Assembly: GCA_050298055.1 (NCBI GenBank)
Contig: JBNKTL010000003.1
Coordinates: forward strand, 77,186 to 141,185
DNA: 64,000 nt
DNA from: Spirochaetota bacterium
GTDB lineage: Bacteria > Spirochaetota > UBA4802 > UBA5550
Reading direction: 5' to 3'
The notes under the pieces are model-generated. The model was given only the letters and a program-made list of their open reading frames with translations, did no database searches and had not been told where the DNA came from. The position numbers and the translations under genes are program-made. Positions 8,235-43,433 of the stretch are shown here, in pieces (the first letter of the stretch is position 1; each line of letters begins with the position of its first letter).

Positions 8235-8738
8235 TCAATTGCTTTTTACATATTCATCGAGGCATGCTTCTGAATTTTTTCCAACACATGACATTTCCAT
8301 ATATCTTGCACTCCGGGCACTCTTTTTGAATTCAAGATATTTGTTTTTAAATTCATGTTCAGGCATATTTATTGCATATCTTCTTAATGTATCATCTTTA
8401 TCTATCTTTTCAATTTGTTTGTCAATAATTGACCAATACATTTTTGCACAATCTATCGATGCTCTTTTAAGATGATTGAATGCCATTTCAAAGTTCTTTT
8501 TGCCTTCTTCGCTATCCGGATCCTCAAAGTAAGGGAATAAATGTGTTGTGATATTTTCTAATTCAACTAATACCTGTCTCGGTTTATCTGCAACTAATGC
8601 AACAATTCCGGAATACATTCCCAGGAAATAATCATTATATAGTTTTAAAATTCTATTGAGGTCTTTTTTCCTGACACCCATATGTATTTCTCCAATAGCA
8701 AAAGAGGAATACATATTCCAGTATTCCTCATTACACAA
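8235..8738 (-). CDS. Hypothetical protein in an AT-rich island.
   Basis: 167-aa ORF with no recognisable motifs. It lies in a stretch of about 30% GC between housekeeping genes. Confidence 0.45.
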   Translation of the reverse strand: MCNEEYWNMYSSFAIGEIHMGVRKKDLNRILKLYNDYFLGMYSGIVALVADKPRQVLVELENITTHLFPYFEDPDSEEGKKNFEMAFNHLKRASIDCAKMYWSIIDKQIEKIDKDDTLRRYAINMPEHEFKNKYLEFKKSARSARYMEMSCVGKNSEACLDEYVKSN

Positions 8739-9865: not shown

Positions 9866-10321
9866 ATGGATAATATGAGAACGACTATTAATGCAGACAC
9901 ACTACTGTTCAATAAGCTGAGAGAAGCCATGGCTGAAGTTGATCTGTCAAAGGACGAACTAATCAAACTTTTAATATCACGGTTCATTAAGAAAAACAGC
10001 TTTATTCCTCAACCCGGTAAAACAGTGAAGTACCAGGATGGCGGTCCGGAGAGAGTCTGGAAAATTGAACATATCAACCTTGAGCCTGTATTCTATGAGA
10101 AGGTCCTTGATTTAAGGAGACACTTTAAGTTTTCCGTTTCGTGGTTTGTTGCTTTTGGTATTATTAATTATCTTGATGAATTGGTAAGGGATTTGAGTAA
10201 TTCAGGAAATAGTGCAAAAATTCTGGATAACTATACTGGAAATTATGTTTATATTTTTGAAATTGTAGATAATATTCTCGTATTTATCACAATGATGGAA
10301 ACACAAAGCAGAAAAACCTGA
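9866..10321 (+). CDS. Hypothetical protein; paralog of the ORF at 45281..45766.
   Basis: Shares conserved blocks with the second copy: LSKDELIKLL, EPVFYEKVLDLRRHFKFSVSWFVAFGIINYLDEL versus DPVIYEKAQDMRRNYKFSVSWLLAYGIIHFLDEI. Confidence 0.6.
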   Translation: MDNMRTTINADTLLFNKLREAMAEVDLSKDELIKLLISRFIKKNSFIPQPGKTVKYQDGGPERVWKIEHINLEPVFYEKVLDLRRHFKFSVSWFVAFGIINYLDELVRDLSNSGNSAKILDNYTGNYVYIFEIVDNILVFITMMETQSRKT

Positions 10322-15407: not shown

Positions 15408-15551
15408 AAGGTCCTTACTCGTTACCAGTTAAGTTTATTTTGTAAGGGAGATAATTGAATACCTCACCTCTGGAAAAAAGATTTAACGGACTTGCTATTA
15501 TGTCAACTTAAATTTACCGGAGGATTTTAAGCTACATGTTTTCTCTTACCG

Positions 15552-15780
15552 TCTTAGCGAGCGCAGCGTGGCTCATCTCGATACGATCCTGCTCACAAAG
15601 TAGCCAGGAAACGGTATATAGAGATGCAGGATCACTCGATGAGCATCTGTACTTCGACTACATGATTTGGTGCAAAATCATGCGGGCTCAGCACTAGTTG
15701 AGTTCCCCGAGTGATTTGCCGTTTTATGAATTCAGTGCTTTCTGTTTTTAAAATGCGGCAAATTGTATCGAGGGGAACAG
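15552..15780. repeat. Composite palindromic intergenic repeat, copy 1 (modules X, Z and Y).
   Basis: Module X (15552-15650) and module Y (15704-15780) recur at 21641-21846. Module Z (about 15651-15702, ggtgcaaaatcatgcgggctcagcac) recurs at about 32316-32347. Each module is internally palindromic; for example Y has the stem atttgccg...cggcaaat. Confidence 0.6.
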
Positions 15781-15821
15781 GCCAGCAAGTCCAGGAACAT
15801 TTACTGAGAACACAAAAAAAT

Positions 15822-15855
15822 CCGGCCCTTCTGGGGGAAAGGGCCGGATCGTGGA
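15822..15855 (-). terminator. Orphan rho-independent terminator read on the minus strand.
   Basis: The plus strand reads aaaaaaatccggcccttctgggggaaagggccggat, which has an 11-bp GC-rich stem. On the minus strand the hairpin is followed by TTTTTTT. Confidence 0.4.
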
Positions 15856-16202
15856 ACAATAACTTTTTCCGTTCTCATGGGCCGAACTATCAGCTCATGA
15901 TAAGCGATAATAACATGATAACTACTTTGTGAGATAGTGCGATAAATCGGTAGCAATTTTTGATATGGCATGATCAAGATATGATTCATCAGAAATTCTC
16001 TTTCTGTATTCACGTATCTTTTTCTGATCAGCTTTTTTGTTTCCCGGTCTTATCTCACGATCCTCCATTTTCATGAGATTATCCATATAAACCTCCAAGG
16101 TTAATCTGTTCCTCCATGAACAGAATCACTTAACCTGTTGAATATTTCGGTATATTGAAAAAATATATAAAGATATTAATTAAAGATATTGACTTTTTAT
16201 AA

Positions 16203-16362
16203 CTGTTCGGCTATATATAAAAGAGGAAGTAACGATTCAGCTATGTATAAAAATAATTATATTTAACAATAAAGATAACCGGTATGTCCGCGCTGCCCTG
16301 GGCAGAGACATATTGTTGATATTTTAGAAAACAGGTTGAGCATAGCCATACAGCTGAGTAGT
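16203..16362. repeat. MITE-like palindromic repeat element, copy D.
   Basis: The left arm is ctgttcggctatatataaaag / attcagctatgtataaaaataattat. The central GC hairpin is atgtccgcgctgccctgggcagagacat followed by attgttgat. The right arm is catagccatacagctgagtag. It lies just upstream of the GGDEF gene. Confidence 0.55.
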
Positions 16363-16418
16363 TTCAAAAGAGACAATTTGTCAAAAACAGAAGTGTTATA
16401 CATATTTTTATATTTCAG

Positions 16419-17186
16419 ATGAACGAAAAGAACCAGAACAAAGAGCTCAATGACTTTCAGCTCAGGAATGTGAAGATATTAACACACCTCCTGTCACACG
16501 ATGCCATTGATGATGAAATTGTGGAATATCTCCGCAGGGCGGAACTGGATTACTTCGCCCTTATTGACAAGTATGAAATCCTCGAGCACAAGATCAATGT
16601 TGATGATAAGACCAACCTTCTGAAATACAAAAATGATTACCTCACAAACATATTAAAGACCGCGTCAAGGATCTATTTTGGCGCGGAAAACGCGGCTTAC
16701 TCAATCTCCATGGTGAGGTTTGATATCGACGACTTCTCGGTATTTAATAATAAATACGGCCATGACCTGGGTGACAGGGTCTTAAAGAAAATTGCCGGTA
16801 TCATCAGGTCACATTCACGGCCCACCGATTACGCCATACGGTTCGGCGGAGAAGAATTCGACGTTCTTCTGCCGGCAACAGACCTTGAAGGGACCGGGAT
16901 ATTTCTGGAAAATATCTTCAGGGAGATACGGAAAGCTGAAATCGTTCATAAAAAAGAAAAACTCAGGGCCACCGTAAGTGCCGGAGCTTCTTCAATGGTC
17001 TACAGTTTCAGCAATAATAAAAAGATAGATGAAGATGAAATAGAGAACTACTTTATGCTTCTTCAGAATGAAGCGGATGACGCCCTCTACGACGCGAAAA
17101 ACTGCGGAAAGGACCGGTACTGCATTTATAACAGGTCGAGAAAAGAGGAATATTCAACAATCAGGGATTCCTACTGCGGCAAATAG
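16419..17186 (+). CDS. GGDEF-domain diguanylate cyclase.
   Basis: Has a GGEEF active-site motif (RFGGEEFDVLLP) in a GGDEF fold. The N-terminal region is helical. Confidence 0.8.
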   Translation: MNEKNQNKELNDFQLRNVKILTHLLSHDAIDDEIVEYLRRAELDYFALIDKYEILEHKINVDDKTNLLKYKNDYLTNILKTASRIYFGAENAAYSISMVRFDIDDFSVFNNKYGHDLGDRVLKKIAGIIRSHSRPTDYAIRFGGEEFDVLLPATDLEGTGIFLENIFREIRKAEIVHKKEKLRATVSAGASSMVYSFSNNKKIDEDEIENYFMLLQNEADDALYDAKNCGKDRYCIYNRSRKEEYSTIRDSYCGK

Positions 17187-17198
17187 GAAACACCGGGA

Positions 17199-18233
17199 TC
17201 AATTCTCCCTGTCCAGGAGTTCCCCAATACCCTTCCCGGCGGGATTCTCCACAACACCTTTTTCCGTAATGATAGCTGTAATAAATTCCGCCGGCGTTAC
17301 ATCGAACGCGGGATTTTTCACGGATATTCCTTCCGGCGCGATCTGCACCGATTGGATGTAAACAACTTCTTCGATACTTCTCTCCTCGATGGGGATTCCC
17401 TTCCCGGTTTCTGTTCCGGGATCAAGGGTTGATGTGGGAGCGGCAACATAAAAGGGGATTGAATGGTTTCCCGCGAGAACGGAGTGAGTATAGGTCCCGA
17501 TCTTGTTGGCGGTATCACCGTTAAGCGCGATCCTGTCTGCGCCCACAATGATCTTTTTTATCACACCCTCCTTCATGAAATAGCCTGACATATTGTCCGT
17601 TATAAGGGTCACGGGAATATTGTCCCTGGAGAGTTCCCACGCGGTGAGCCGGGCACCCTGCAGGTAGGGCCGCGTTTCACAGGCAAAAACTTCTATCTTC
17701 TTTCCTTCTTCAACGGCGGCCCTGATCACTCCCAGGGCGGTCCCGTAACCACCTGTTGCCAGCGCCCCGGCATTGCAGTGGGTCATGACAACATCCCCGT
17801 CTTCCAGGAACCGGCTCCCGTTTTGGCCCATCTTTTTGTTCATTTCAATATCTTCACGGTAGATATTCAATGCCTCGGCTTCCAGTTTCTCCGCCGCGGT
17901 CCCGGTATTATCCGACAGATCGATGATCTTCTTCATCCTTTCCGCGGCCCAGAAGAGGTTGACCGCCGTGGGACGTGTCCCTTTAAAGAGTTCAATAATC
18001 CGGGACATCTCCTCCTTAAAGCTCTCAAGGCTTTTGCTCTTGAGATTTTTCGCCGCCAGGGCGATCCCCATCCCCGCGGCAATCCCGATAGCGGGCGCCC
18101 CCCGTATCTCCATCTCCCGGATGGAAACCGCCACGTCACGGTAATTACCATAGTTGTTATAGACCTCGTGAAGAGGGAGTTTTCGCTGGTCCAGTATGGT
18201 TACATGGTCGCCGTTCCATTTGATTGAATTCAT
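17199..18233 (-). CDS. mtnA: Methylthioribose-1-phosphate isomerase (eIF-2B alpha/beta/delta family).
   Basis: 344 aa, matching MtnA/eIF-2B-like length, with motifs IRGAPAIGIAA, FYVAAPTSTLD and TAWEL. Confidence 0.75.
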   Translation of the reverse strand: MNSIKWNGDHVTILDQRKLPLHEVYNNYGNYRDVAVSIREMEIRGAPAIGIAAGMGIALAAKNLKSKSLESFKEEMSRIIELFKGTRPTAVNLFWAAERMKKIIDLSDNTGTAAEKLEAEALNIYREDIEMNKKMGQNGSRFLEDGDVVMTHCNAGALATGGYGTALGVIRAAVEEGKKIEVFACETRPYLQGARLTAWELSRDNIPVTLITDNMSGYFMKEGVIKKIIVGADRIALNGDTANKIGTYTHSVLAGNHSIPFYVAAPTSTLDPGTETGKGIPIEERSIEEVVYIQSVQIAPEGISVKNPAFDVTPAEFITAIITEKGVVENPAGKGIGELLDREN

Positions 18234-18242
18234 GAGTGCCCT

Positions 18243-19163
18243 TTATTCTCCTTCATTTCTGTCTACCCGGTATTTTCTCAAGCGGATGATATTGCCATCA
18301 TCATTCCAGTCCACTTCATCCATATGGATCCTGATAATTAAAAGTCCCCTGCCGCTGCTCTTGAAAAAGTTTTCGGGGTCCCGGGGGTCCGGAAGCCCCT
18401 TATGGTTGAACCCGGGACCGTCATCCTCAATAAAGTACTCAACATAGTCCCTGGTCAGTTCATATTTTATTGTGATTTTCCTTTTGACATAGTATTCGTC
18501 ATTTTTCCGCTTTTCGATCTCCTCGTTGAAACTCTTTATTCCCCCGTAGTTTTTTACATCGGACGAGATCTCAAGGGCGCCGTGAAACATGGCATTGCTG
18601 AGGGCCTCCACAAGAGCGAGGGTTATATTCTCCGCCGTTGTGGTATTGCAGAGACCCGACGGGACAAGGTTCTTTGTCAGCTTGTAGGATATTGCATTTA
18701 TAATAGCGGGATCAACGGGGACACGGTAAATTGTCTTTTCATAGTCAACATACTGAAGATAGTTGTCAACGAGCTTCTGTTCCTTCTTGCTGCGAAGGAT
18801 CGTTCTCACCGAAGAGGAAATTTCATTGATATCAAAAGGTTTCCTGATAAAGTCACTTGCCCCGAACCGGAGCGCCTTCACCGCATCTTCAACATTTCCG
18901 TGACCGGTGATAATAAGGACCGGGATCGGTTCATCCTGGCTTTTGATCCTCCTGAGAAGTTCGATACCATCCATCTTGCGGAGCTTGATATCGGTGATAA
19001 CAAGGTCAATTTTATGGTCGCCGCTTTTTATAAGATAGAGAACATCTTCGGCTTTTTCCAGGGATATGACGTTATACCCTATCCGGGTGAGCTTTTTCTG
19101 AAGAGCAAACCTGATAACATCTTCATCATCGACAATGAGGACCGTGGGCTGATTATCGTTCAT
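18243..19163 (-). CDS. Response regulator with an N-terminal receiver domain and a C-terminal GHKL (HATPase_c, RsbW/SpoIIAB-like) domain.
   Basis: Receiver domain: VLIVDDEDVIRFAL...DLVITDIKLRKMDGIELL...PVLIITGHG. C-terminal HATPase-like: EALSNAMFHGA...DDGPGF...GRGLLIIR. Confidence 0.7.
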   Translation of the reverse strand: MNDNQPTVLIVDDEDVIRFALQKKLTRIGYNVISLEKAEDVLYLIKSGDHKIDLVITDIKLRKMDGIELLRRIKSQDEPIPVLIITGHGNVEDAVKALRFGASDFIRKPFDINEISSSVRTILRSKKEQKLVDNYLQYVDYEKTIYRVPVDPAIINAISYKLTKNLVPSGLCNTTTAENITLALVEALSNAMFHGALEISSDVKNYGGIKSFNEEIEKRKNDEYYVKRKITIKYELTRDYVEYFIEDDGPGFNHKGLPDPRDPENFFKSSGRGLLIIRIHMDEVDWNDDGNIIRLRKYRVDRNEGE

Positions 19164-19168
19164 CCCTG

Positions 19169-20404
19169 TCAGCTCTCCTCCCTGTCCAGTATCATATGGC
19201 CCATCTTGTCCCTCTTTGTCTTGAGGTAATTAATATTTTCACTCAGCGCTTCAACTTCAATGGGGACCCTCTCAACCACTTCCAGACCGTACCCCTCAAG
19301 GCCTATTATCTTTTTGGGGTTATTCGTGAGAAGCTTTATTTTATGGAGTCCCAGGTCAACAAGCATCTGGGCGCCAATCCCGTAGTCCCTCAGGTCTTCG
19401 GGAAAACCGAGTTCAATATTTGCTTCAACGGTATCCAGGCCCTTGTCCTGCAGGTGATAGGCCATGATCTTGTTTCCCAGGCCGATACCTCTCCCCTCCT
19501 GCCGCATATAGAGAATGACACCCGAACCCTCTTTTTCTATCATACTCATTGCCTTGTGAAGCTGGTTCCCGCAGTCACACCTGCGGGACGCAAAAACATC
19601 ACCTGTCAGGCACTCTGAATGGACCCTTACCAGGACGTTCTCCATCCCGTCCACGTCCCCCTTTACCAGGGCCACATGGGTGGTGTCGCCAATCTCCGTT
19701 TCATAGGCAATGATTTTAAACTCTCCGAAGTCCGTGGGTAGCGATGCCGAGGAGACCCTTTTTACCAGCCTCTCCTTGTGCTGCCGGTATTTTATGAGGT
19801 CGGATATTGTGGCTATTTTGAGATCATGTTTTTTCGCGAATTTATCAAGATCACCTCTCCTGGCCATGCTCCCGTCATCGTTCATGATCTCGCAGATAAC
19901 TCCCGCGGGTTTTAAACCCGCAAGCCGCGCAAGGTCCACTGCCCCCTCGGAATGACCGGCCCGCACCAGGACGCCTCCCCTCCTGGCAGCCAGGGGGAAT
20001 ATATGCCCGGGCTTTTTGAAATCTTCGGCTGTTGTCTTTTCACTTATCATTGCCAGGACCGTATTGGAACGGTCACCGGCGGAAATCCCGGTGGTTGTTC
20101 CCTCTTTGGCGTCAATGGAGACCGTGAAGGCCGTTCCATACTTGTCATTACTGTCATCCACCATAAGTGAAAGCCCCAGCCGTGCGACAACATCCTGGGT
20201 AACGGGAACACAGACAAGCCCTCTTCCGAATGACACCATGAAATTAATCACTTCCGGCGTGCAGAACTCGGCGGCAATAACAAGATCGCCTTCATTTTCC
20301 CTCTCCTCGTTATCAACAAGGATAATCATTTTGCCGTTTCTGATATCTTCAATTATTTCATGTATGTCGCTGGATTTCATCACGGACCTCCCAATCAACC
20401 CCAT
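19169..20404 (-). CDS. ribBA: Bifunctional 3,4-dihydroxy-2-butanone-4-phosphate synthase and GTP cyclohydrolase II.
   Basis: 411 aa. The DHBP synthase N-terminal half has RENEGDL. The GCH-II half has CxxC...C zinc motifs ([15 protein letters not shown]) and RGIGL. Confidence 0.9.
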
Positions 20405-20636
20405 TAAATTTTGCCCCCGGATATAGTCAAGATATTAATAGTGTGTAATTTCACGAAGAGTTGTTAGAGAAATTTTAAATACAATAGAACATAACTTTCA
20501 GAAGATTAGCAACGGAGGTTATGAATATAGTTTCGAGTTCCAGGTTCCAAGTTCTTTGTTCATATACAGAGTCTTCAACTCGAAACCCGGAACTATACAT
20601 GCCTCTGTGGTTAATCCTAAAATTGGATGAAAAGTA

Positions 20637-21566
20637 TTAAGATAAAGAATCCAGGATCTTGATGATCTCTTCCCGGCTCTCCGCGGTAACCAGGGATCTT
20701 CTTATTTTGGCCGCGTTTTTGAAGCTGTGGATATAGCCGGTGTAATGTTTTCGGAGCAGCCTTATTCCCTTCTCCCCATGGAAGCCGATCATCAGGTCAA
20801 GGTGCTCCCTGACCTGCCGGACGATTTCTTCAACACCGGGTCTTTCCCCTGAAAAGATCCAGGGATTGCCCACGGCGCCCCGCCCGATCATTACACCTGA
20901 ACATCCCGAACTCTTAAGCCTCTCCTGGGCCCCGTCATATGAGTCTATGTCACCGTTACCCACAACGGGAAGTTTTGAAAATTCCGCAATTTCGCCGATG
21001 ATATTCCAGTCCGCTTCTCCCGCATATTTCTGCGCAACGGTCCTTCCATGGACAATGATAAAGGAAACACCCCCCTCTTCCAGGGCCCGGACAACTTCAT
21101 GGTAGTTCCGGGTATTGTTGTCCCAGCCGGTCCTGATCTTTGCGCTGAGAGGGATCGTTATCCTCTCCCTGATCCTCCCGGCAATCCGGCGCACCCTCTC
21201 CGGTTCACGGAGCAGCGCTGACCCGGCGCCCTCTCCTCCCCGGATCACCCGTCTCGCGGGACACCCTAAATTGATATCGATGAAATCGGGCCCGTACTCC
21301 TTCTCCACAATGGCCGCGGCTTCACCCATGACTTCCGGAGACCTGCCGAAAAGCTGTATTCCCAGGGGCCTCTCCTCCTCATGAAAGCGGAGAAGGTCCA
21401 GGGTCTTTTTATTGTGCCTGATAATTCCCTCGGAGCTCACAAGCTCGGTGATCACCGGCCCGCACCCGTGGCGCCGGGCAATCCGCCTGGCAGGGGAATC
21501 GGAGTAGCCCGCAAGGGGAGCAAAGAAGAGGGGATTTCCCGAGGTAATTTTTTCGAAATCATTCAT
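20637..21566 (-). CDS. dus: tRNA-dihydrouridine synthase.
   Basis: Motifs LAPLAGYSDSPARR, INLGCP and the FMN-binding fold typical of the Dus family. The start is placed at MNDFEK. Confidence 0.8.
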   Translation of the reverse strand: MNDFEKITSGNPLFFAPLAGYSDSPARRIARRHGCGPVITELVSSEGIIRHNKKTLDLLRFHEEERPLGIQLFGRSPEVMGEAAAIVEKEYGPDFIDINLGCPARRVIRGGEGAGSALLREPERVRRIAGRIRERITIPLSAKIRTGWDNNTRNYHEVVRALEEGGVSFIIVHGRTVAQKYAGEADWNIIGEIAEFSKLPVVGNGDIDSYDGAQERLKSSGCSGVMIGRGAVGNPWIFSGERPGVEEIVRQVREHLDLMIGFHGEKGIRLLRKHYTGYIHSFKNAAKIRRSLVTAESREEIIKILDSLS

Positions 21567-21640
21567 ATGAATGTAGATATTGAGCAATGAGTTGTTTCTC
21601 TGTCAATAGAATAAAAAGGGAGAAGAGTCAGGAAACACAA

Positions 21641-21846
21641 CAGGTGCTCATCGAGTGATCCTGCATCTCTATATACCGTTTCCTGGCTACTTTGTGAGCA
21701 GGATCGTATCAAGGTGAGCTTCGCTCGCTATGACAGCTCTTTTTAATCTAAAATTAAAACTCTTCTCTGTTCCCCTCGATACAATTTGCCGCATTTTAAA
21801 ACACAAAGCACTGAATCAATAAAGCGGCAAATCACTCGGGGAACAC
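21641..21846. repeat. Composite palindromic intergenic repeat, copy 2 (modules X and Y, without Z).
   Basis: 21641-21732 matches the reverse complement of 15552-15650, and 21768-21846 matches the reverse complement of 15704-15780. Because each module is itself palindromic, the relative orientation of the two copies is ambiguous. Confidence 0.6.
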
Positions 21847-21874
21847 AACAGAATGACTGCATCCCTCAATCTTC

Positions 21875-22312
21875 TCAGTGCCTCTGTGTCTCTGTGGCAA
21901 ACTCTGCCTCCATCCTTCTGATCCTCAACTTCCAGTAGATCCATAAAAAATTGAAGAGAAGAAATGTCAGCCCAAGCAGCCAGCCCATAAGAGGTTCCTT
22001 CCGGGGGTCCTGGAGCAGGGAAGCAACAATACCGGTAACCGCCGTTATTGACCAGATGATCTTCAGGCTCAGCATATTGCTGAAAGTGCCGATTCCGGAA
22101 TTGCGGCAGAGATACGACTCAATACCAATCCCGAAAAGCGCAGCGGCAACAAGCCTCGCGGCAAAAGGGTCCACCACCTCCCAGCCAAGGAGTGTTAAAA
22201 ACTCAACGGGAAAGAGAAAGAGGGGGACCGCAAATACAAAATCTATAACAAAGTGTACCAGGAACCAGTTTCTTAGTGAGACCGGGACTTTTTTCTCATT
22301 AATTTCTTTCAT
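21875..22312 (-). CDS. Hypothetical small membrane protein.
   Basis: 145-aa ORF with four hydrophobic segments. Confidence 0.45.
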   Translation of the reverse strand: MKEINEKKVPVSLRNWFLVHFVIDFVFAVPLFLFPVEFLTLLGWEVVDPFAARLVAAALFGIGIESYLCRNSGIGTFSNMLSLKIIWSITAVTGIVASLLQDPRKEPLMGWLLGLTFLLFNFLWIYWKLRIRRMEAEFATETQRH

Positions 22313-22458: not shown

Positions 22459-23664
22459 ATGAAACAGGGGAGATGGAAGAAGGGGCTTACGAGAAACGTC
22501 GTCATCCTCGGCTTTGTAAGCTTTCTTAACGACAGCGCATCTGAGATGATCTACCCGCTGTTGCCGGTATTCATTACGGCCGTGCTGGGCGCAGGCCCCG
22601 CGGCACTGGGCATCATCGAGGGGATTGCCGAAACAACGGCATCGCTCCTGAAACTCTCTTCCGGCTACCTTTCCGACCGTACCGGGAAACGCAAAGGATG
22701 GATCGTGGCCGGATATTCCCTCTCCAACATTATCAGGCCGGTCATCGCCTTCACCACGTCCTGGTTCCAGGTGCTGGCGCTCCGCTTCTCGGACCGCGTG
22801 GGTAAGGGGCTTCGCACGTCACCGCGGGACGCCGTCATTGCCGATTCCACGCCCGCTGAATTCCGGGGCAAGGCCTAAGGCTTTCACCGGGCCCTGGACC
22901 ATGGGGGCGCCATAGCGGGACCCCTCGCCGCAACGGGGCTGCTCCTGGTCTGTCCCGGTGATCTTAAAACCGTATTTCTTCTCTCCTTCGTCCCCGGTTT
23001 TTTCGCCCTCTGCATGCTCGTTTTCGGTCTCACGGAAAAACGACCGGTAAAACCACGTACCACTTCATCATCTTTCGACTTAAGGACCGCGTGGACGGAA
23101 ATCTCCCCTGAATTCCGGCGCTATCTCATGATCATCTTCCTGTTCACACTGGGAAACTCAACGGATGCCTTTCTTCTGCTGCGGGCGCAACAGCTGGGTG
23201 TACCCGTGACTCTCCTGCCCATGATCTGGGTCGTGCTCCACGCGGTCAAAGCGGCGTTCTCTGTTCCCGGCGGCATTATATCTGACCGCATGGGAAGAAA
23301 GAAAGTCATCATCGCGGGGTGGATCGTATACGCTTTTGTGTACGCCGGATTTGGCACAGCATCACAGTCCTGGCACCCATGGGCGCTTTTCGGCATGTAC
23401 GGTATCTATTTCGGTCTTACGGAAGGGACGGAGAAGGCACTCGTCGCCGACTTCGCACCGGTCCGTCTCCGCGGTTCCGCATTCGGTCTTTATCATCTTT
23501 TCACGGGACTCGGGGCGTTTCCCGCGTCACTGATCTTCGGCGCCGTGTGGCAGAAATTCGGTCCCGCGGCGGCCTTCGGTTTGGGCGCGGCCTTATCGCT
23601 CACAGCAAGCGTGCTGCTGTTTTCACTTGCGGTTAAAAAACCGGGAAAGGGACCCGTTTCTTGA
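22459..23664 (+). pseudogene. MFS transporter interrupted by a single in-frame TAA at 22876-22878.
   Basis: ORFs 22459..22878 and 23014..23664 are in the same frame, and the frame stays open between them (...FRGKA*GFHRALDHGGAIAGPL...). The N-terminal part has the MFS motif (GYLSDRTGKRKG) and the second half has its repeat (GIISDRMGRKK). Confidence 0.6.
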
Positions 23665-25322: not shown

Positions 25323-25451
25323 TGCTCAGCTATATGGCTATAATCAACCTATTTACTCAAATACAGACAATATGTCCCCGCCGCCGAAGGCAGCGGGGAC
25401 ATCAGTTATCTTTTTGATGAATATAATTATTCTTATACATAGCTGAGTAGT
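25323..25451. repeat. MITE-like palindromic repeat element, copy A.
   Basis: Left arm ctgctcagctatatggctataatc. Central hairpin tgtccccgccgccgaaggcagcggggaca. Right arm gatgaatataattattcttatacatagctgagtag. Confidence 0.6.
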
Positions 25452-25633
25452 TACAATGATTTAAACAAAAACTCCTTATAAAACTGTCACTTTTTTCTAT
25501 CACTCCTTTTAACATCTGAATTTACTCAACTGTATGTTAAATAAATTAATTTTCTCGCCCCTGTAAACGAATAGTTACACAATCAATAATTATTCCGGTT
25601 GACATTTTGCATAAAATTCCTTAAATAAATTTT

Positions 25634-32136: not shown

Positions 32137-32446
32137 TATACAGGGGGCAGAACATTAATAAAATTTTTTGTGTCCTGCAATAACAACTAATGACATTATA
32201 TATAATAGGGGAAATAAAATGTAACGACCGGTACTTCGACCGCATAATTTTGAACTAATCATGATTGGTTAACTGCTGAAATTTCCAACTATTAAAAGAA
32301 TCTTATGGGTGCAAAATCACGCGGGCTCAATACCAGAAATTTCAGCAAAACCGGAATCTTAAAAAAAAGTGAATTGACAGATTATTTAAAAATTCTTAAA
32401 TCCTTTGATGACAGAGCGGTAAGATACATAACGGTTTTTGATATTA

Positions 32447-32575
32447 CTTAGCTGTATGGCTAAAATATACATATTCAATAAATAACAGCCATATGTCCAC
32501 GCCGCGGTCGGCGGCGGGACACATCACTTATTTTTTTATTCATGAGCATATTTGTTTTTACAAACAGCTGAGTAG
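32447..32575. repeat. MITE-like palindromic repeat element, copy B.
   Basis: Left arm cttagctgtatggctaaaatatac. Central hairpin tgtccacgccgcggtcggcggcgggaca followed by a T-run. Right arm acaaacagctgagtag. A Z-module fragment of the composite repeat lies about 100 bp upstream. Confidence 0.6.
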
Positions 32576-32648
32576 TAACTAATATTTTTTGATGATGTAG
32601 GTTATTAATTTTTAGGAATAAATACTGATAAAATAACTGTATTTAATC

Positions 32649-33506: not shown

Positions 33507-36500
33507 GTACCAGAATCCCCCGAAGGGGGACTTTAAGATTTTAGTTGGAGGTAATGGGATGAGAACAGAGATCTTTAACGGGTGGGATTTTATTCACAAC
33601 TTTCGACTAACATTTCGTAAAACATTTAGGCTGCGCTTTCTCGGGTTATATGTTTCAATAATAATCGCGTCTTTAATGAGCTGCAGTGACGGGGCGGTCA
33701 ACGCCTACCTGGACTATGAACCGAACAGGGCGCCGCAGATCCTAGACCTGCAAAGCGATTTCACCGGCCTGCCTGTTCCCGGGGATATCATGACCGTAAG
33801 CTGTGAAACCTATGACCCCGACGGGAACCCTCTCACCTACGACTTTACCTCAGGCCAGGGGAGCTTCACGGGCCAGCAGGACAGGGAGGGAAAAAGTGAA
33901 ATAACATTTGTTGTGGGCAATATTTCCGGGGGTGAAGAGGTCACTGTCTCCGTACAGGTCACCGACAGCAAAAACGCCTCTGCCGCAGCCACCCTCAATA
34001 TCGGAACAAGCAGCCTGGGCCCGGCAATCACCCTTCTGGGATCGGATAACAGGACCATAGGGGCCGATGGGTATTCAGCGGTGACATTCAGGTCAAGCAT
34101 GGACGGCTTTTACCAGGTTGATCTCGCAGACAGCGGAATAACCGGAGATGAAATAGATCCGGATGGATATTTCTTTTTTATTCAAAAGAACACCGATACT
34201 GTTTTCAATATATGCGGTACCAGCTATAGTGATAATGAATGTATTGCCGGTATTCCGAAACTCGAAACCGATTCTGCAAACAGTGTCTTCATCAAGGTCA
34301 TGGACGGTATGGGGCAGATTTCTGTTCGTGAGATCGTAATTACCGTGCTGGGTACCACTCCCGTTGTGGGAAACCCGGAGATACGTATTACCGATCTGAA
34401 GGATGACGCCATGACCCTTAACTGGAACTTTGCAACAGACCTGGATAACCCCGAAGCCGGTGAGCAACAGCAGGGGATGGACTACAGTGTCTATATGTCT
34501 GAGAATGATAATATCTCCACACTGGAAGACGTGGAATCTTACGGGAACAGAGTAATGGATTGGAAAGCTGATCTAAATTTCTTTACTGTTACCGGTCTTG
34601 CTCCTTCCACTACATATTATTTTAATGTAGTGGTGATGGATGGTGACGGGGTGAAGGAGGTTTATGGGGGTGTTGAGGGGAGGACGGAGGAGAGGACATA
34701 TTTTCAGGTAATCTCCACTGTGCCGGCCCCGGATGTTACTGATGTTGATATTAATTCCAAAATTGTGATAGCATTTAACAGGGAGTTAAACGAGGAAACC
34801 GTCAATGAGGATACGATTGTCCTGAAAGATACCCATGGTGATGAAATTCCTGTGAAACTCAGTCTCTCCGGCAGTAATATGGTTATTATCGTTGAACCTG
34901 TGGACAATCTTGATTATGGGATGAAGTATTATATGACTGTTTCTTCCGGTATGGAAGATGTTCAGGGGGATGGTCTCGGGGATGATTATGTTTTTGGGTT
35001 TTCTACGAAAGTCAGGTGTACAAGCTGTTTTGTGACAACGTGGAAAACGGATAATCCCGGGACTTCGGAGGATGATCAGATCACTATTCCGGTTTATAGT
35101 GGTGAAACTTATGATTATTCTGTAGATTGGGGGGATGGGAGCAGTGATGAACATCTCACAGGGAGTGCAACCCATACTTATGATGTTCCTGGTATTTATA
35201 CCGTTAGCATATCCGGGACATTTCCAAGGATATACTTTTTTAATTCCGGGGATAGGGAAAAAATATTGACAATTGAGAGTTGGGGGGAGATTGAATGGAC
35301 GAGTATGGCATCTGCATTTTTCGGATGTAGTAACCTCACATATAACGCTACAGATGCCCCTAATCTTTCCGGTGTTACTGTTATGAATTATATGTTCTAT
35401 AATGCACTTTCTTTAAACGGAGATTTCAGTGGATGGGACGTCAGTAATGTTGCAGATATGAGCTCTATGTTTGCGTACGCCACTTCATTCAACGGCGATA
35501 TTAGCAGCTGGGATGTAAGCAGTGTTACAAATATGTATGGTATGTTTTGGAATGCTACTTCATTTAACAGAGATCTCAATAACTGGGATGTTAAAAATGT
35601 TATTAATATGTTCTTAATGTTTGGAACTGCTACTTCTTTTAATGGAAATATCAGCGGATGGGACGTTAGTAATGTTACTAATATGTCTGGCATGTTTGAG
35701 TCTGCCACTTCATTCAACGGAGATATTAGCAACTGGGATGTAAGCAGTGTTACAAATATGTATGGTATGTTTTGGAATGCTACAACATTTAACGGGGATA
35801 TAAGTGGATGGGATGTTAGCAATGTTACAGATATGAGATTGATGTTTCGTAATGCTTCTACTTTTTCAAATCATGATCTTAATGGTTGGGATGTTAGTAG
35901 TGTCAAAGTAATGAGTTCTATGTTTAATGGAGCTTCTTCTTTTAATGGAGATATCAGCAACTGGAACGTTAGTAATGTTAAAGATATGATCTATATGTTT
36001 TATAATGCCACTTCATTCAACGGTGATATCAGCAGGTGGGATGTCAGTAGTGTTACAGATATGTACGGCATGTTTCGGAATGCCACTTCATTCAACGGTG
36101 ATATCAGCAGGTGGGATGTCAGTAATGTTAAAAATATGAGTTCTATGTTTAATGGAGCTTCTTCTTTTAATGGAGATATCATTAACTGGAACGTTAATAA
36201 TGTTAAAAATATGATCTATATGTTTAATAATGCCATTTCATTTAACAGAGATATTAACAAATGGGATGTGAGTAGTGTTACTAATATGTATGGGATGTTT
36301 TGGGGCGCAAGTACTTTTAACGGGGATATGAGCAACTGGGATGTCAGCAATGTCACTAATATGGCATTTATGTTTTATAACGCTTCTGATTTTAATGGAG
36401 ACACCAGCAGATGGGACGTCAGTAATGTTATATATATGGATAGCATGTTTTTTGGTGCTCGTTCTTTTAACGGAGATATCAGCGGCTGGGATGTCAGCAG

Positions 36501-37095
36501 TGTCACTGATATGAGCAATATGTTTTATAACGCAAAATCATTTGAGAAAGATATCAGTGATTGGGATGTAAGTAGTGTAACTAATATGAAATTTATGTTT
36601 TTTGGTTCCTCTTCTTTTAACGGAGATATAAACGGATGGGATGTCAGCAGTGTCACAAATATGAATGCAATGTTTGCTTACGCCACTTCTTTTAACAGGG
36701 ATATCAGCAGGTGGGAGGTAAATAGCGTCAAAAGTATGGTAAGTATGTTTTGTGGGGCTTCTTCTTTCAATGGAGATATTAGTAGCTGGAACGTCAGCAA
36801 TGTCACAGACATGAACTCTATGTTTTATAACGCTACTTCTTTTGACAAAGATATCAGCAAATGGGATGTTAGCAGTGTAACAAATATGACAGGGATGTTT
36901 CGAGGCACAACTTCATTTAATGGAGACATAAGTAACTGGGATGTCAGTAGTGTTATAAATATGAGTTATATGTTTTATAACGCATCTGCTTTTTCATACC
37001 ACAATCTCAGCGACTGGGATGTTGAAAATGTTACTGATCACACGGGATTTTCAACAGGATGGGGAGATGGGAATATGGAGCCTGAGTGGCCGTGA
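33496..37095 (+). CDS. Large surface lipoprotein with N-terminal Ig-like domains and about 22 tandem DUF285 (BspA/Mycoplasma-type) repeats.
   Basis: 1199 aa. The likely true start is MRTEIF (33556), with signal and lipobox IIIASLMSC. From about residue 620 the 25-aa unit FNGDIS.WDVS.VT.M..MF....S repeats continuously. Confidence 0.75.
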   Translation: MFFEYQNPPKGDFKILVGGNGMRTEIFNGWDFIHNFRLTFRKTFRLRFLGLYVSIIIASLMSCSDGAVNAYLDYEPNRAPQILDLQSDFTGLPVPGDIMTVSCETYDPDGNPLTYDFTSGQGSFTGQQDREGKSEITFVVGNISGGEEVTVSVQVTDSKNASAAATLNIGTSSLGPAITLLGSDNRTIGADGYSAVTFRSSMDGFYQVDLADSGITGDEIDPDGYFFFIQKNTDTVFNICGTSYSDNECIAGIPKLETDSANSVFIKVMDGMGQISVREIVITVLGTTPVVGNPEIRITDLKDDAMTLNWNFATDLDNPEAGEQQQGMDYSVYMSENDNISTLEDVESYGNRVMDWKADLNFFTVTGLAPSTTYYFNVVVMDGDGVKEVYGGVEGRTEERTYFQVISTVPAPDVTDVDINSKIVIAFNRELNEETVNEDTIVLKDTHGDEIPVKLSLSGSNMVIIVEPVDNLDYGMKYYMTVSSGMEDVQGDGLGDDYVFGFSTKVRCTSCFVTTWKTDNPGTSEDDQITIPVYSGETYDYSVDWGDGSSDEHLTGSATHTYDVPGIYTVSISGTFPRIYFFNSGDREKILTIESWGEIEWTSMASAFFGCSNLTYNATDAPNLSGVTVMNYMFYNALSLNGDFSGWDVSNVADMSSMFAYATSFNGDISSWDVSSVTNMYGMFWNATSFNRDLNNWDVKNVINMFLMFGTATSFNGNISGWDVSNVTNMSGMFESATSFNGDISNWDVSSVTNMYGMFWNATTFNGDISGWDVSNVTDMRLMFRNASTFSNHDLNGWDVSSVKVMSSMFNGASSFNGDISNWNVSNVKDMIYMFYNATSFNGDISRWDVSSVTDMYGMFRNATSFNGDISRWDVSNVKNMSSMFNGASSFNGDIINWNVNNVKNMIYMFNNAISFNRDINKWDVSSVTNMYGMFWGASTFNGDMSNWDVSNVTNMAFMFYNASDFNGDTSRWDVSNVIYMDSMFFGARSFNGDISGWDVSSVTDMSNMFYNAKSFEKDISDWDVSSVTNMKFMFFGSSSFNGDINGWDVSSVTNMNAMFAYATSFNRDISRWEVNSVKSMVSMFCGASSFNGDISSWNVSNVTDMNSMFYNATSFDKDISKWDVSSVTNMTGMFRGTTSFNGDISNWDVSSVINMSYMFYNASAFSYHNLSDWDVENVTDHTGFSTGWGDGNMEPEWP
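35350..37010 (+). repeat. Tandem coding repeat array of DUF285 units, 75 nt each.
   Basis: About 22 consecutive units with the conserved core tggga(t/c)gt(c/t)agcagtgt.acaaatatg...atgtttt. Several units are near-identical at the DNA level, for example 36000-36075 versus 36070-36145. Confidence 0.7.
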
Positions 37096-40576: not shown

Positions 40577-40855
40577 TATTGTATTATATTGATTAAAAAA
40601 ACGAATCTTCTTAATGTGATGTATATTAATACTTCATATATATTAAAAAAGAGTAAATTTTCTTGATTTTTATCGCAAAACTCACTAACTTTGCCCATTA
40701 ATACAACATCTTTTTTTAGAAAGTATACACTTTTTAATGGAATATCTGGTACTCAATATTAATGAAATTCTAATAAAATAGAGAATTAATTTCAACAAAA
40801 ATTGAAAAAAAATAGAAAAATCAAATAATATCTTTAATATTAATAATATAAAATG

Positions 40856-40970
40856 AATAACTACTCAACTATATATCCCCATCACCTTAAGTTGTGGGTA
40901 TTTATTAGTTTTATTTTTTTACTGAATATAATTATTCCTAATACATTATTCACATTGTTGAGTAGTTATT
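40856..40970. repeat. MITE-like palindromic repeat element, copy E (variant).
   Basis: Perfect 14-bp terminal inverted repeats aataactactcaac ... gttgagtagttatt. The internal tract gaatataattattcctaatacat is shared with copy A. A weak central hairpin is cccatcaccttaagttgtggg. Confidence 0.6.
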
Positions 40971-40988
40971 AAAATTACAGGTTTAATT

Positions 40989-43433
40989 TTGAAAAAATTA
41001 TCTAAGAGTATAAAAAATTATAAACTTTTTTCCCCTGTATTAATAATTGCCCTGGTTTTTTTGGTTACCACCAGGTCAAAGGGCGCAATAACATCCATAA
41101 CTTTGACACCGGGAAATCCCACGACCTTATCCAATACACTTGGTTATTATCTTGCGGGCAGACAATATACATTTACTGTAAATGTCAAGGATCCTGCCGC
41201 AACAGCATGGGCAGATATCACAGAGGTACGTCTCAATATACCTAATGGACCGGCAATTGAATTATGGGTGAACCCATCAGGTACAGGAGCTCAGACAATT
41301 AATTATGTGTCAGGAGTAACATCCGATGTATCTGCAAATATCCCAGGTACTGATACTTATAATGATTTTGATGTCCAGTTTACCATAACTGTATTGTGGA
41401 ACATTGCAGAATCCAGTTGGGCAGCATCAAGAGTAATTACAGCACAGGCTGTATCATCAAATACATTAAGTACAACTCAGAATGTTTCCTATGGAGTATG
41501 TTCTTCCATAAGATTTAATAATTTTGCCCAGGATTTAGACGCACTTGATGGTTATGTAAGCCCCTGGCACAATGCCTTTAACGTTACAGGGGCAATTGTT
41601 TATGATGTGCCTGGAGCGACAAATAGTGATAAGGTCTATTTTGTAAATGGAGGTTCGGAACTTACCAGTGTAAGATTATTGCATAATGGAGTTGACACAA
41701 CTGGCATGAGTACTCCTCTTACTGCTGATTCCGCTTTTACGAATGATGCTAACGACGATGTCTCTATTACTGTATCTGCTGCGTTTTTTAATAGCAATAG
41801 CTTAGCATTAAGTACTTTGCCATGGACAGTTCAAGCCTATTTCTCAACAGGAAGTGGATCTGAGGTTTCCAGCAATTCTTTAAATATTACAAATGAAAGG
41901 GTGGAAGTTACATCTGTAAGGTTAATAAATGGCGGCGGTACGGATTTATCTCCTGTGCCACCTCCCGAAGCCAGGGTCTATAACCGGTCAGTTAATGTTT
42001 CAGGTGTGCAACTTCAGGTTTACGCAAGGATGCAGGGCTCTACAGGAACTGTTATTGGGAATACAACTGTTAGAGTAAGGGACATTACTGATACTATTGA
42101 TTATGATGTTGTTATAAACAATGGCACAAATGTTGGGACAGTAAATCTTTCAGCGTTTTCTTATCCAACAACTCCGGCAACTGCTGGAAATACAAATACA
42201 CACACCTATCAGGTTACAAATATTTCAGGAAGTGTAACTGACAGTAATCAAAATGTTTATGCAAGGATCCTTCAACCTGGGAATAATGGAGGATCCGATA
42301 CTATTGTCTATTGGGATAATGCCGACCAGCCCGGTAATAATGGATCATCATTTACAACCTTTCAAGCAACACCATGGTCATCAACTGCAGATTCATTTAC
42401 AATTAATTGGAATGCTATTCCCAACGGTACTACATTTGACGGGGATTTTTATACTTACAGGATATATTATCAATTGCCAAGTACAGTGTGGAATATGTTA
42501 GATGTCAGTACCGGAGGTATCTATACTGCCTTGGGCACTTATACAACAAATACTATTGATATTTCAGGGCTTGCTCCATTAACTGACTACCCTTTTAGAG
42601 TTTCGGCAGTAGATGTTTATGGCAACGAAGTTGTACTGGCTGACATGCTAACTGATACAGCCAGTACAAAACCATCATCACTTACCGTATCAATATCTGA
42701 TGGAATAACCACATATGAAGATTCATCTTTCACAGGAAACCAGCTCGCTACAGCAAGACCAGTAAGAAAATCATCAATAAAAGTAACTCTTTACCTCGTA
42801 ACTGGAGGAAATGAACCTGATGAGATCAACCTGATTATTGGTGACAATTCTCTTGAACCAGCAACTATTCTGGGTAGTACATATTATACAATACCCAGTA
42901 CAAAAAAATCATCAAATACATGGGTTGCATATATACCCAGCACACATACACTTATGTCTTTAAATGAATCTATAAGGTTTATCGTGGAAACAAAATATCA
43001 AGGAACAAGTACTTATGTTGATCATGATGCAGACTATAATCCTGCAGAGCAGTTGCCTGCAGGTGAAGATTATAATAACTGGGAATATACTTTTACTATT
43101 TCAAAACCAACCACCTTCTCCCCCTGGCCCACACGCATTCTGAACAACGTCATCACGGACAAAAACCCCGTGGCCTACCCGGCATACTACCTCACCGAGG
43201 ACGCCAATGTGACAATAAGGGTCTATGACATAAAGGGAAGGCCGGTTGTGACCCTGCTGGACAATGCCTTCAGGCGGAGCGGCCAGAACATCAAGGAGAA
43301 CGGCTGGCGGGGGATCAACAAATCAAGCAGGATGCTGGGACCCGGTCTCTATTATATGCATTTCAGGGCCAAAAGTTCTTCCAGCGGGAAGGTCATACTC
43401 AACAAGTTCAAAAAGGTGGTCATCGCGAAGTAA
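40989..43433 (+). CDS. Large secreted protein with a C-terminal T9SS-type sorting domain (Por secretion CTD-like); it begins with a TTG start.
   Basis: Signal peptide present. Thr/Ser/Asn-rich beta-type repeats with an FN3-like region. The C-terminal 80 aa (VTIRVYDIKGRPVVTLLDN...GPGLYYMHFRAKSSSSGKVILNKFKKVV) resemble the T9SS CTD (TIGR04183-like). Confidence 0.65.
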   Translation: MKKLSKSIKNYKLFSPVLIIALVFLVTTRSKGAITSITLTPGNPTTLSNTLGYYLAGRQYTFTVNVKDPAATAWADITEVRLNIPNGPAIELWVNPSGTGAQTINYVSGVTSDVSANIPGTDTYNDFDVQFTITVLWNIAESSWAASRVITAQAVSSNTLSTTQNVSYGVCSSIRFNNFAQDLDALDGYVSPWHNAFNVTGAIVYDVPGATNSDKVYFVNGGSELTSVRLLHNGVDTTGMSTPLTADSAFTNDANDDVSITVSAAFFNSNSLALSTLPWTVQAYFSTGSGSEVSSNSLNITNERVEVTSVRLINGGGTDLSPVPPPEARVYNRSVNVSGVQLQVYARMQGSTGTVIGNTTVRVRDITDTIDYDVVINNGTNVGTVNLSAFSYPTTPATAGNTNTHTYQVTNISGSVTDSNQNVYARILQPGNNGGSDTIVYWDNADQPGNNGSSFTTFQATPWSSTADSFTINWNAIPNGTTFDGDFYTYRIYYQLPSTVWNMLDVSTGGIYTALGTYTTNTIDISGLAPLTDYPFRVSAVDVYGNEVVLADMLTDTASTKPSSLTVSISDGITTYEDSSFTGNQLATARPVRKSSIKVTLYLVTGGNEPDEINLIIGDNSLEPATILGSTYYTIPSTKKSSNTWVAYIPSTHTLMSLNESIRFIVETKYQGTSTYVDHDADYNPAEQLPAGEDYNNWEYTFTISKPTTFSPWPTRILNNVITDKNPVAYPAYYLTEDANVTIRVYDIKGRPVVTLLDNAFRRSGQNIKENGWRGINKSSRMLGPGLYYMHFRAKSSSSGKVILNKFKKVVIAK

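Follow-up and report, generated by a model that had tools for sequence, protein, structure and literature searches.

The window, a 64,000-nucleotide stretch of DNA from an uncultured Spirochaetota lineage, holds a 5.9-kb block whose genes are assigned by Pfam as GGDEF, mtnA (IF-2B family), REC+HATPase_c_2, ribBA and dus. This gene content agrees with the original prediction, to which a 54-aa gene at 15922-16086 (minus strand) is added; no family is listed for it in the contig gene tables, and we read it from its sequence as putatively FlgM-like. On either side of the block lies a composite of two repeat modules, X and Y, all copies of which are extragenic according to gene calls and Pfam. The reverse-complement matches claimed at these positions are real, and with refined edges the features of the locus are as follows (coordinates are those of the window):

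15501..15506, minus strand: TTGACA -35 box of the AI-2E transporter promoter, kept in relatives; the X1 edge is 42 nt away
15549..15650, plus strand: X1, a hairpin unit of ~102 nt
~15651..15693, plus strand: Z1, which links X1 and Y1 tail-to-tail and contains a small hairpin, CATGATTT/AAATCATG
15694..15780, minus strand: Y1, an 87-nt hairpin unit of X-like design
15819..15850, minus strand: strong intrinsic terminator of the putative flgM-like gene, kept in relatives, bounding the left insertion gap on its upstream side
21602..21607, minus strand: TTGACA -35 box of the dus promoter, kept in L100 and L101 (both relatives); the X2 edge is 32 nt away
21634..21643, plus strand: AACACAACAG, a 10-nt direct repeat of the Y2 end (21842-21851), adjoining X2
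21640..21737, minus strand: X2, copy of X with polarity opposite to X1
21738..21766, plus strand: W, an AT-rich linker of 29 nt that joins X2 and Y2 head-to-head and has a weak hairpin of 7 bp
21767..21851, plus strand: Y2, copy of Y with polarity opposite to Y1
32231..32336, plus strand: Z2, a longer, diverged copy of the Z family

X1 begins with the extension GTCTTAGCGAGCG, followed by an outer stem (GCTCA/TGAGC), a bulge and mini-helix in which CTCGATAC lies opposite ATCACTCG, an inner stem GATCCTGC/GCAGGATC and a loop of 33 nt, and its 3' end is CTGT. It is 94% identical to the reverse complement of X2 over 86 nt and shares with it a perfect core of 66 nt (15580-15645 on the plus strand, 21645-21710 on the minus strand), for which 100 shuffles gave a chance expectation of 0 matches. 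X2 differs from X1 in three respects: T>C in the bulge, C>T in the stem, where a G.T wobble results, and an indel of 5 nt within the 5' extension; through this indel X2 lacks the GTGG that overlaps the stem in X1. Read on the minus strand, Y1 has the layout CTGTTCCCC-TCGATACA-ATTTGCCG, a 34-nt loop and CGGCAAAT-CACTCG-GGGAAC. Y1 and the reverse complement of Y2 are ~93% identical over 84 nt, and the perfect Y arm of 31 nt has 0 expected matches by chance (shuffles). The arms of Y1 and Y2 (~46 nt) are unchanged, all 6-8 differences falling in the loop or the 3' tail.

X and Y are built to a common design: the 5' arm carries CTCGATAC and the 3' arm ATCACTCG, with an inner stem of 8 bp and a loop of 33-34 nt. 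Two 8-mers are common to both modules and occupy equivalent structural positions at a spacing of 49 versus 51-52 nt; unit sizes range from 87 to 102 nt and arms from 19 to 26 nt, and the four X/Y sequences amount to two near-identical types. The Y arms are near-terminal, and the X arms are subterminal, behind an unpaired extension of 16-20 nt. The earlier description of the modules as palindromes needs correction in one respect: Y is a strong hairpin (z = -5.7 and -5.1), but X as single-stranded DNA is only a weak hairpin and not unusually stable (z = -0.3 and +0.2). The direct repeat AACACAACAG is read as a partial Y start, part of Y itself and not a target-site duplication. Besides the known modules, no other hairpin of similar geometry was found in the window.

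Unit polarity was assigned from the CTCGATAC/ATCACTCG design common to X and Y. The left site reads X> Z <Y (tail-to-tail) and the right site <X W Y> (head-to-head), i.e. X and Y are each individually reverse-complemented between the sites while the order X then Y is kept. Since the modules are inverted singly within a retained X..Y order, the two composites are not mirror images of each other. Their orientation, previously taken to be ambiguous, is well defined: the 33-34-nt loops, the stem bulges and the 5' extension of X are all asymmetric. Similarity between X1 and X2 and between Y1 and Y2 ends abruptly, and the flanks are unrelated. Z1 overlaps X by the microhomology GT and Y by CTAG. As first reported, Z is confined to the left composite, and a further Z-like copy near 32.3 kb was confirmed with refined edges. 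Z1 is a shortened relative of this 32231-32336 element, whose halves GTACTTCGAC... (at 32231) and ...GGTGCAAAATCACGCGGGCTCA are split by an insert of ~55 nt; the Z-like segment 32308-32336 is 86% identical to Z, and the stem changes in Z2 are not compensatory. W is unrelated to Z. Other short intergenic repeat families in the genome are Z itself and the 150-nt V family, which has 4 copies in the window.

Each composite occupies the gap that runs from the upstream gene end or terminator to the -35 box of the following promoter, and in the direction of transcription the order is identical at both sites (Y, linker, X, promoter), with a module polarity relative to transcription that differs between them. 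A scan of the modules revealed no promoter or terminator signals inside them. On inspection by eye, none of the K-turn, attC, sigma-54 and intrinsic-terminator readings fitted the motifs.

Comparison with relatives identified empty sites. Relatives at 83-88% protein identity (L100-L104) share with the window the complete order MFS..dus-ribBA-REC-mtnA-GGDEF(-)-flgM-like-AI-2E-MoOx, and X, Y, Z and W are absent from them at both conserved sites. In GCA_975964425.1 neither gene order nor strand differs from the window across the two junctions, Logan contigs match it in both respects, and synteny of the dus-ribBA-REC/HATPase-mtnA cluster extends to distant relatives. The left gap, measured from the conserved terminator T-tract to the conserved promoter AAGTTGACATAATA, is 283 nt in the window, 13 nt in L102 and L103 (AI-2E 83%) and ~46 nt in L104 (88%). 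At the right site, the dus promoter TTATTCTATTGACAGAGAAACA is retained in L100 and L101 (Dus 83-85%), whose sequence upstream of it is different and contains no X, Y or W. The empty-site alignment contains no target-site duplication. Because relatives keep the order and orientation at both junctions without the modules, the 5.9-kb block is, on this comparison of sequences, ancestral; it is not cargo and has not been inverted, and the X/Y modules are lineage-specific insertions. It follows that the repeats do not bracket the block in any meaningful sense, as had been proposed. Nor is there evidence for the block as a substrate for inversion or deletion: three assemblies of the species agree at the right junction and show a single orientation, which is also that of the relatives. 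In physical terms the inverted, identical 66-nt cores could still recombine. In two other MAGs of the species the contigs terminate within X1, at window position 15585, which is explained by repeat collapse.

Two copies each of X and Y are present in the ~100 kb of the species sampled, and no further copies were found there or in 1.3 Mb of relatives' loci. The species sequence had been extended via the window-edge proteins (7.5 kb and 9.2 kb) and the IS3 transposase (~15 kb), and neither the added flanks nor the IS3 locus contained X or Y. The IS3 transposase is single-copy per assembly; the IS3 copies near the window do not resemble X or Y, and no parent IS with matching ends was found. An exact-word scan with an X 20-mer gave 0 matches in 185,579 species genomes (a representative set that excludes this species' own genome and in which the closest Dus is 58% identical), JGI metagenomes and viral contigs. 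A Y-arm 20-mer had 0 matches in JGI metagenomes, a Y 24-mer and the Z word each had 0 in viral contigs, and a BLAST search of plasmids and phages with the composite returned no match. A regular expression for the motif architecture (TCGATA..ACTCG) recovered only the known copies in 1.27 Mb of loci. Among the called genes of the window and its flanks there was no RAYT/IS200 (PF01797-type) or other candidate enzyme, and their gene lists contained no site-specific recombinase or invertase. Rfam 15 gave no module match even at E<10, with generic hairpin hits far below threshold, and its only matches in the window were two tRNAs.

Among known systems, X and Y resemble REP/BIME elements in being extragenic imperfect palindromes with unpaired stem bases and no target-site duplication, in forming two types paired in opposite orientation with a linker set by the tail-to-tail or head-to-head junction, and in lying after gene ends or terminators (PMC3333891, PMC2817692). 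They differ in that a REP is an imperfect palindrome of 20-40 nt (PMC3333891), compared with 87-102 nt and 33-34-nt loops here, and carries a GT(A/G)G head (PMC2817692), which in X1 appears as the GTGG overlapping the stem and is lacking in X2 and Y. REP copies usually exceed 100 per genome, compared with the two each seen here in ~100 kb, and a REP/BIME system is expected to have a cognate RAYT (Y1 HUH transposase) in the genome. A RAYT survey found RAYT-associated REPs almost only in gammaproteobacteria (PMC2817692), whereas the host here belongs to the Spirochaetota. X and Y also share with MITEs and REPINs their non-coding units of ~100 nt, inverted-repeat arms, long hairpin, intergenic insertion in either orientation and empty sites in relatives. 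They depart from MITEs in the missing target-site duplication and parent IS and in a spacer that is not self-complementary; where MITEs have terminal inverted repeats, only the Y arms come close to this position. Like integron attC sites and the end hairpins of IS200/IS605, the modules combine asymmetric unpaired bases and conserved structure with little sequence conservation between types, and this asymmetric conserved structure suggests recognition in a folded single-stranded form. The attC arrangement is RYYYAAC...GTTRRRY; the Y motif GTTCCCC...GGGGAAC is its reverse. Integrase, cassette array and TnpA are all missing here, and the loops are far longer than those of the IS608 type.

The best reading, which we favour tentatively, is that X and Y are lineage-specific, non-coding, low-copy and non-autonomous hairpin units inserted singly at two gaps and forming BIME-like mosaics. 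They resemble REP/BIME or MITE repeats and look like ordinary small intergenic elements; of the options raised originally, the REP-like one is the best available, given extragenic hairpin repeats in opposite-polarity pairs with linkers. According to this reading, X (~100 bp) and Y (~87 bp) units would have been inserted discretely and in either polarity into two permissive gaps, each limited by a terminator or gene end upstream and by the -35 box of the next promoter (AI-2E transporter or dus). The units would be members of a non-autonomous, low-copy repeat family that may spread as folded single strands, an enzyme encoded elsewhere reading the conserved bulge, and they would have no required function where they now sit; occasional recombination between the inverted 66-nt cores could be a by-product. 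Excised single-stranded circles that are reopened at other sites can yield permuted variants (PMC3333891). Insertion of discrete units is supported by the abrupt ends of similarity and by the polarity, which is flipped per unit with the order kept. The empty sites in relatives with identical gene order support a repeat family, as do the common 8-mers, a divergence that respects structure (Y arms, X2 wobble), the other intergenic families Z and V and the contig ends inside X1. Dispersal defines such families, and two copies each in ~100 kb of the species, with no match in any collection scanned, offer no sign of it; the repeat-family reading is further weakened by the absence of a target-site duplication, of a GTAG head and of a candidate enzyme among the called genes, by units 2-4 times the length of a REP and by the ordinary stability of X.

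The presence of both copies within 6 kb also fits a purely local duplication without mobility, in which X and Y arose or arrived once at one site and then reached the other, 6 kb distant, through template switching during replication, gene conversion or ectopic repair, Z and W being filler at the junctions and the family comprising these copies only. We regard this as rather unlikely, even though the similar divergence of X (~5%) and Y (~7%) fits one event, Z is joined to X and Y by 2-nt and 4-nt microhomologies with a Z-like template available at 32.3 kb, and the X loop ends (TCTCTAT...CTTTGTG) resemble the ancestral left-site sequence in L104. Since the units are flipped separately and the linkers are unrelated, a single composite copying cannot explain both sites, and the design common to X and Y points to a family with some recognising factor. 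Loop flipping via arm-limited template switching is ruled out because the flipped unit includes unpaired flanks; the extension of the flipped X has no complementary partner, and such switching cannot invert it.

A regulatory role would explain the shared Y-linker-X-promoter order and the distances of 42 nt and 32 nt that separate X from the TTGACA box downstream. The modules would then be cis-regulatory elements or small RNAs that co-regulate the AI-2E/molybdopterin-oxidoreductase and dus-ribBA operons, with hairpins, or palindromic arms as paired half-sites, binding a regulator or acting on the transcript. In keeping with this, the Y loop has diverged and the stems have not, palindromic arms would function in both polarities and the composites are more stably folded than shuffled controls (z = -1.9 to -3.6). 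The relatives, however, use the same promoters without modules, duplex half-sites would not need the conserved bulge asymmetry, and the modules lack any promoter- or terminator-like signal. The ncRNA option of the original prediction is weak, as Rfam gave no match and the site-dependent polarity relative to transcription argues against a sequence-specific RNA. All in all, we consider regulation of this kind an improbable, though arguable, explanation.

It is somewhat less probable again that X and Y represent a new class of mobile hairpins of ~100 nt, of which they would be the first two sequence types and in which a single-strand-specific enzyme would read the CTCGATAC/ATCACTCG bulge, BIME-like mosaics would have junction-specific linkers and landing would occur preferentially just upstream of promoters.

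An active invertible segment, in which X and/or Y recombine in part of the population, either site-specifically or by frequent RecA-dependent exchange, is very unlikely. Inverted repeats with a perfect 66-nt core lie 6 kb apart, a flip would leave both promoters attached to their own operons and the contigs of two MAGs end inside X1; yet invertons and shufflons come with a recombinase and none appears among the called genes nearby, a single orientation was seen in the three assemblies and in relatives, the X copies are 5% diverged outside the core and repeat collapse explains the contig breaks. Least probable of all is a scar of a staggered-break inversion, in which single-copy X and Y breakpoints were duplicated in inverted form as the 5.9-kb block flipped: the A-X-Y'-block-X'-Y-C topology is the product predicted from inverted duplications in Drosophila (PMC1885836), and X and Y have similar divergence, but module-free relatives share order and orientation at both junctions, so that there was no net inversion, and the unrelated linkers Z and W are, by eye, not flank-derived as predicted. 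A tandem-inversion-duplication model is ruled out by outgroup synteny, and Z and W do not match the flanks that it predicts.

These results remove a false lead, as the block represents ancestral housekeeping synteny and is no island, composite transposon or flipped segment, and the repeats explain only why short-read assemblies of the species break at this locus. If X and Y are indeed low-copy hairpin repeats, they would provide one more example of lineage-specific small hairpin repeats outside the proteobacteria, and the bulge motif common to both could help to find the enzyme that moves them.

Two hairpin repeat units, X and Y, occur once at each end of a 5.9-kb gene segment (the block), and the near-identical reverse-complement relationship that the original prediction had described between the two sites held up: the X copies share a 66-nt core of perfect identity (15580-15645 versus 21645-21710), for which 100 shuffles gave no such match, and the Y copies are perfectly identical over one 31-nt arm. 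The additional module Z was likewise found at the left site and not at the right, and its further copy near 32.3 kb is also present.

Repeat units and linkers (window coordinates)
15549-15650, X1, left site; pairs with the reverse complement of X2
~15651-15693, Z, linker between X1 and Y1; left site only
15694-15780, Y1, left site; ~93% to the reverse complement of Y2
21640-21737, X2, right site; pairs with the reverse complement of X1
right site, W, 29-nt AT-rich linker between X2 and Y2; unrelated to Z
21767-21851, Y2, right site; ~93% to the reverse complement of Y1
32231-32336, diverged copy of Z, interrupted by ~55 nt

Each X unit consists of a 5' extension of 16-20 unpaired nt, an outer stem (GCTCA/TGAGC), a bulged region in which CTCGATAC faces ATCACTCG, an inner stem (GATCCTGC/GCAGGATC) and a non-palindromic loop of 33 nt. 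Y has the same design, reading on its own strand GTTCCCC, TCGATACA, ATTTGCCG, a 34-nt loop, CGGCAAAT, CACTCG and GGGGAAC. The two units are barely alignable overall (z = 1.9-3.3) and have two 8-mers in common at equivalent structural positions, spaced 49 versus 51-52 nt, a coincidence whose chance we estimate at a few in a thousand. Polarity was assigned from this shared bulged-stem design; given also the non-palindromic X loop and the unpaired extension, module orientation is not ambiguous, contrary to what had been supposed. The left site reads X> Z <Y (tail-to-tail) and the right site <X W Y> (head-to-head). The units are thus flipped one by one, their chromosomal order is unchanged and each site has its own linker; one composite is neither a mirror image nor a direct copy of the other. 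Similarity ends abruptly at the unit edges, with unrelated flanks. Divergence tracks structure: Y has no changes in ~46 nt of arms and 6-8 in loop and tail, and the X2 stem differs by a substitution in the bulge and by a C>T change that still pairs as a G.T wobble. Folded as single-stranded DNA, Y forms a strong hairpin (z about -5) and X is unremarkable (z about 0).

The block contains the predicted genes (GGDEF cyclase, mtnA, REC-GHKL regulator, ribBA and dus) and an additional 54-aa gene, read from its sequence as FlgM-like, with a strong terminator. Judged by record coordinates, the window, from an uncultured Spirochaetota, is probably the reverse complement of 38552-102551 in contig JBNKVD010000002.1 (MAG GCA_050298995.1). 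In the nearest species representatives of a 185,579-genome set Dus is only 53-58% identical; the order and strand of dus-ribBA-REC/HATPase-mtnA are kept in four distant relatives. Closer relatives found by protein search (Dus 83-85%, AI-2E transporter 83-88% identity) match the window arrangement over both junctions, with Peptidase_M1 .. MFS .. dus-ribBA-REC at one and REC-mtnA-GGDEF(-)-flgM-like-AI-2E-MoOx-Fer4 at the other. None of X, Y, Z and W is present in these contigs. The same gene order thus exists without the modules; the block is not special, and the reading that they bracket it is not confirmed.

The junction signals are conserved in these relatives as well. At the left, the flgM-like terminator and the AI-2E promoter (AAGTTGACATAATA) both persist, 13 nt apart in two relatives' contigs (L102, L103), ~46 nt apart in a third (L104) and 283 nt apart in the window; at the right, the relatives retain the dus promoter (TTATTCTATTGACAGAGAAACA), and homology is lost within a few nt of the X2 boundary. 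It follows that the modules are insertions specific to this lineage. They occupy two gaps, each of which reaches from the end of a gene or a terminator to the following -35 box, which lies 42 nt (left) or 32 nt (right) from the X edge. Directly upstream of the dus promoter, two right-junction contigs of relatives carry a CGAAACCCGAAAC motif (L100, ~9925-9945; L101, ~8375-8395) where the window has the Y-W-X composite, which may have taken the place of a conserved upstream element. Beside Y2 lies a 145-aa hypothetical gene (21875-22312, minus strand; no Pfam family) that is absent from L100 and L101, whose dus is preceded instead by a polysaccharide deacetylase and/or a gene of 369 aa; this marks the Y2 flank as a gene-turnover hot spot.

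Further along the plus strand, the MFS transporter is split into ORFs of 139 and 216 aa (22459-22878 and 23014-23664), as in the species' other assemblies; L100 has a single 398-aa gene (85-91% identity), and the split gene is likely a pseudogene. At 35272-37040 (+), at least 18 tandem 75-nt (25-aa) repeats, read as BspA-type leucine-rich repeats, lie inside an ORF of ~1,140-1,200 aa with Big_5 and DUF285 domains. Beyond the window end (~4-6 kb; L091 3150-5661, record ~32.5-35 kb), two different IS3-family elements adjoin, in a cluster with genes for a HigB-like toxin and for DUF4258 and DUF3800 proteins; each assembly has one copy of the complete IS3. There is also a repeat family denser and more conserved than X/Y, here called V (~150 nt). 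Its terminal inverted repeats are 17 nt long (GTAACTACTCAGCTRTATG ... CATAGCTGAGTAGTTAC); a GC-rich hairpin lies at its centre, and it has an AT-rich TGAATATAATTATT box.

Copies of the V family
16229-16370 (-), window
25326-25467 (+), window
32440-32587 (+), window
~40825-41001 (+), window
8817-8971 of L100, related species; 71-76% identity

Each of the four window copies precedes the start of a gene of the same orientation by 50-170 nt. RNAalifold gave 33 pairs, 10 with two-sided changes, and Rfam no match for V, a candidate MITE or shared leader/promoter module.

The reading that fits X/Y best is a small family of non-autonomous repeats, similar in character to REP/BIME elements or MITEs. 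BIMEs contain two types of REP that alternate in orientation, and the linker between them depends on whether the junction is head-to-head or tail-to-tail; single-stranded circles that are excised and then reopened elsewhere yield permuted variants (PMC3333891). Such excision and reopening would account for two sites that resemble two phases of one period. The suggestion that the repeats are REP-like is supported by the BIME-type paired layout, but the unit length lies outside the REP criterion and the GTAG head is missing; membership among REP/BIME elements is not established. A serious rival is a purely local two-copy duplication, favored by the lack of any further X/Y copy in the ~100 kb of species sequence examined or in any public collection scanned. 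X/Y are ordinary in kind, though found in this lineage only and of tidy design.

A role as a dedicated RNA, also proposed originally, or as an operator is a possible but weak reading: the units have no Rfam match, the relatives' promoters work without them, and the two sites present them in different polarity with respect to transcription. An active switch that inverts the block through the repeats is unlikely, since no recombinase is found nearby among the called genes and the right junction is common to three assemblies of the species. In two further MAGs of this species (L086, GCA_050292195.1; L087, GCA_050291225.1), a contig begins at window position 15585, inside X1 and 6 nt into the core common to X2, as expected from repeat collapse; both MAGs have uninterrupted contigs over the right copy, and the ends in X1 probably reflect repeat-induced assembly breakage. 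An inversion by staggered breaks predicts the interleaved order X, Y', block, X', Y (PMC1885836), the same as in the window, but outgroup gene order excludes a net inversion, and this reading is rejected.

What stands of the proposed inversion or deletion substrate is that recombination between the 66-nt inverted X cores is possible in principle; nothing shows that it occurs. If the cores did recombine, both operons would retain their own promoters.
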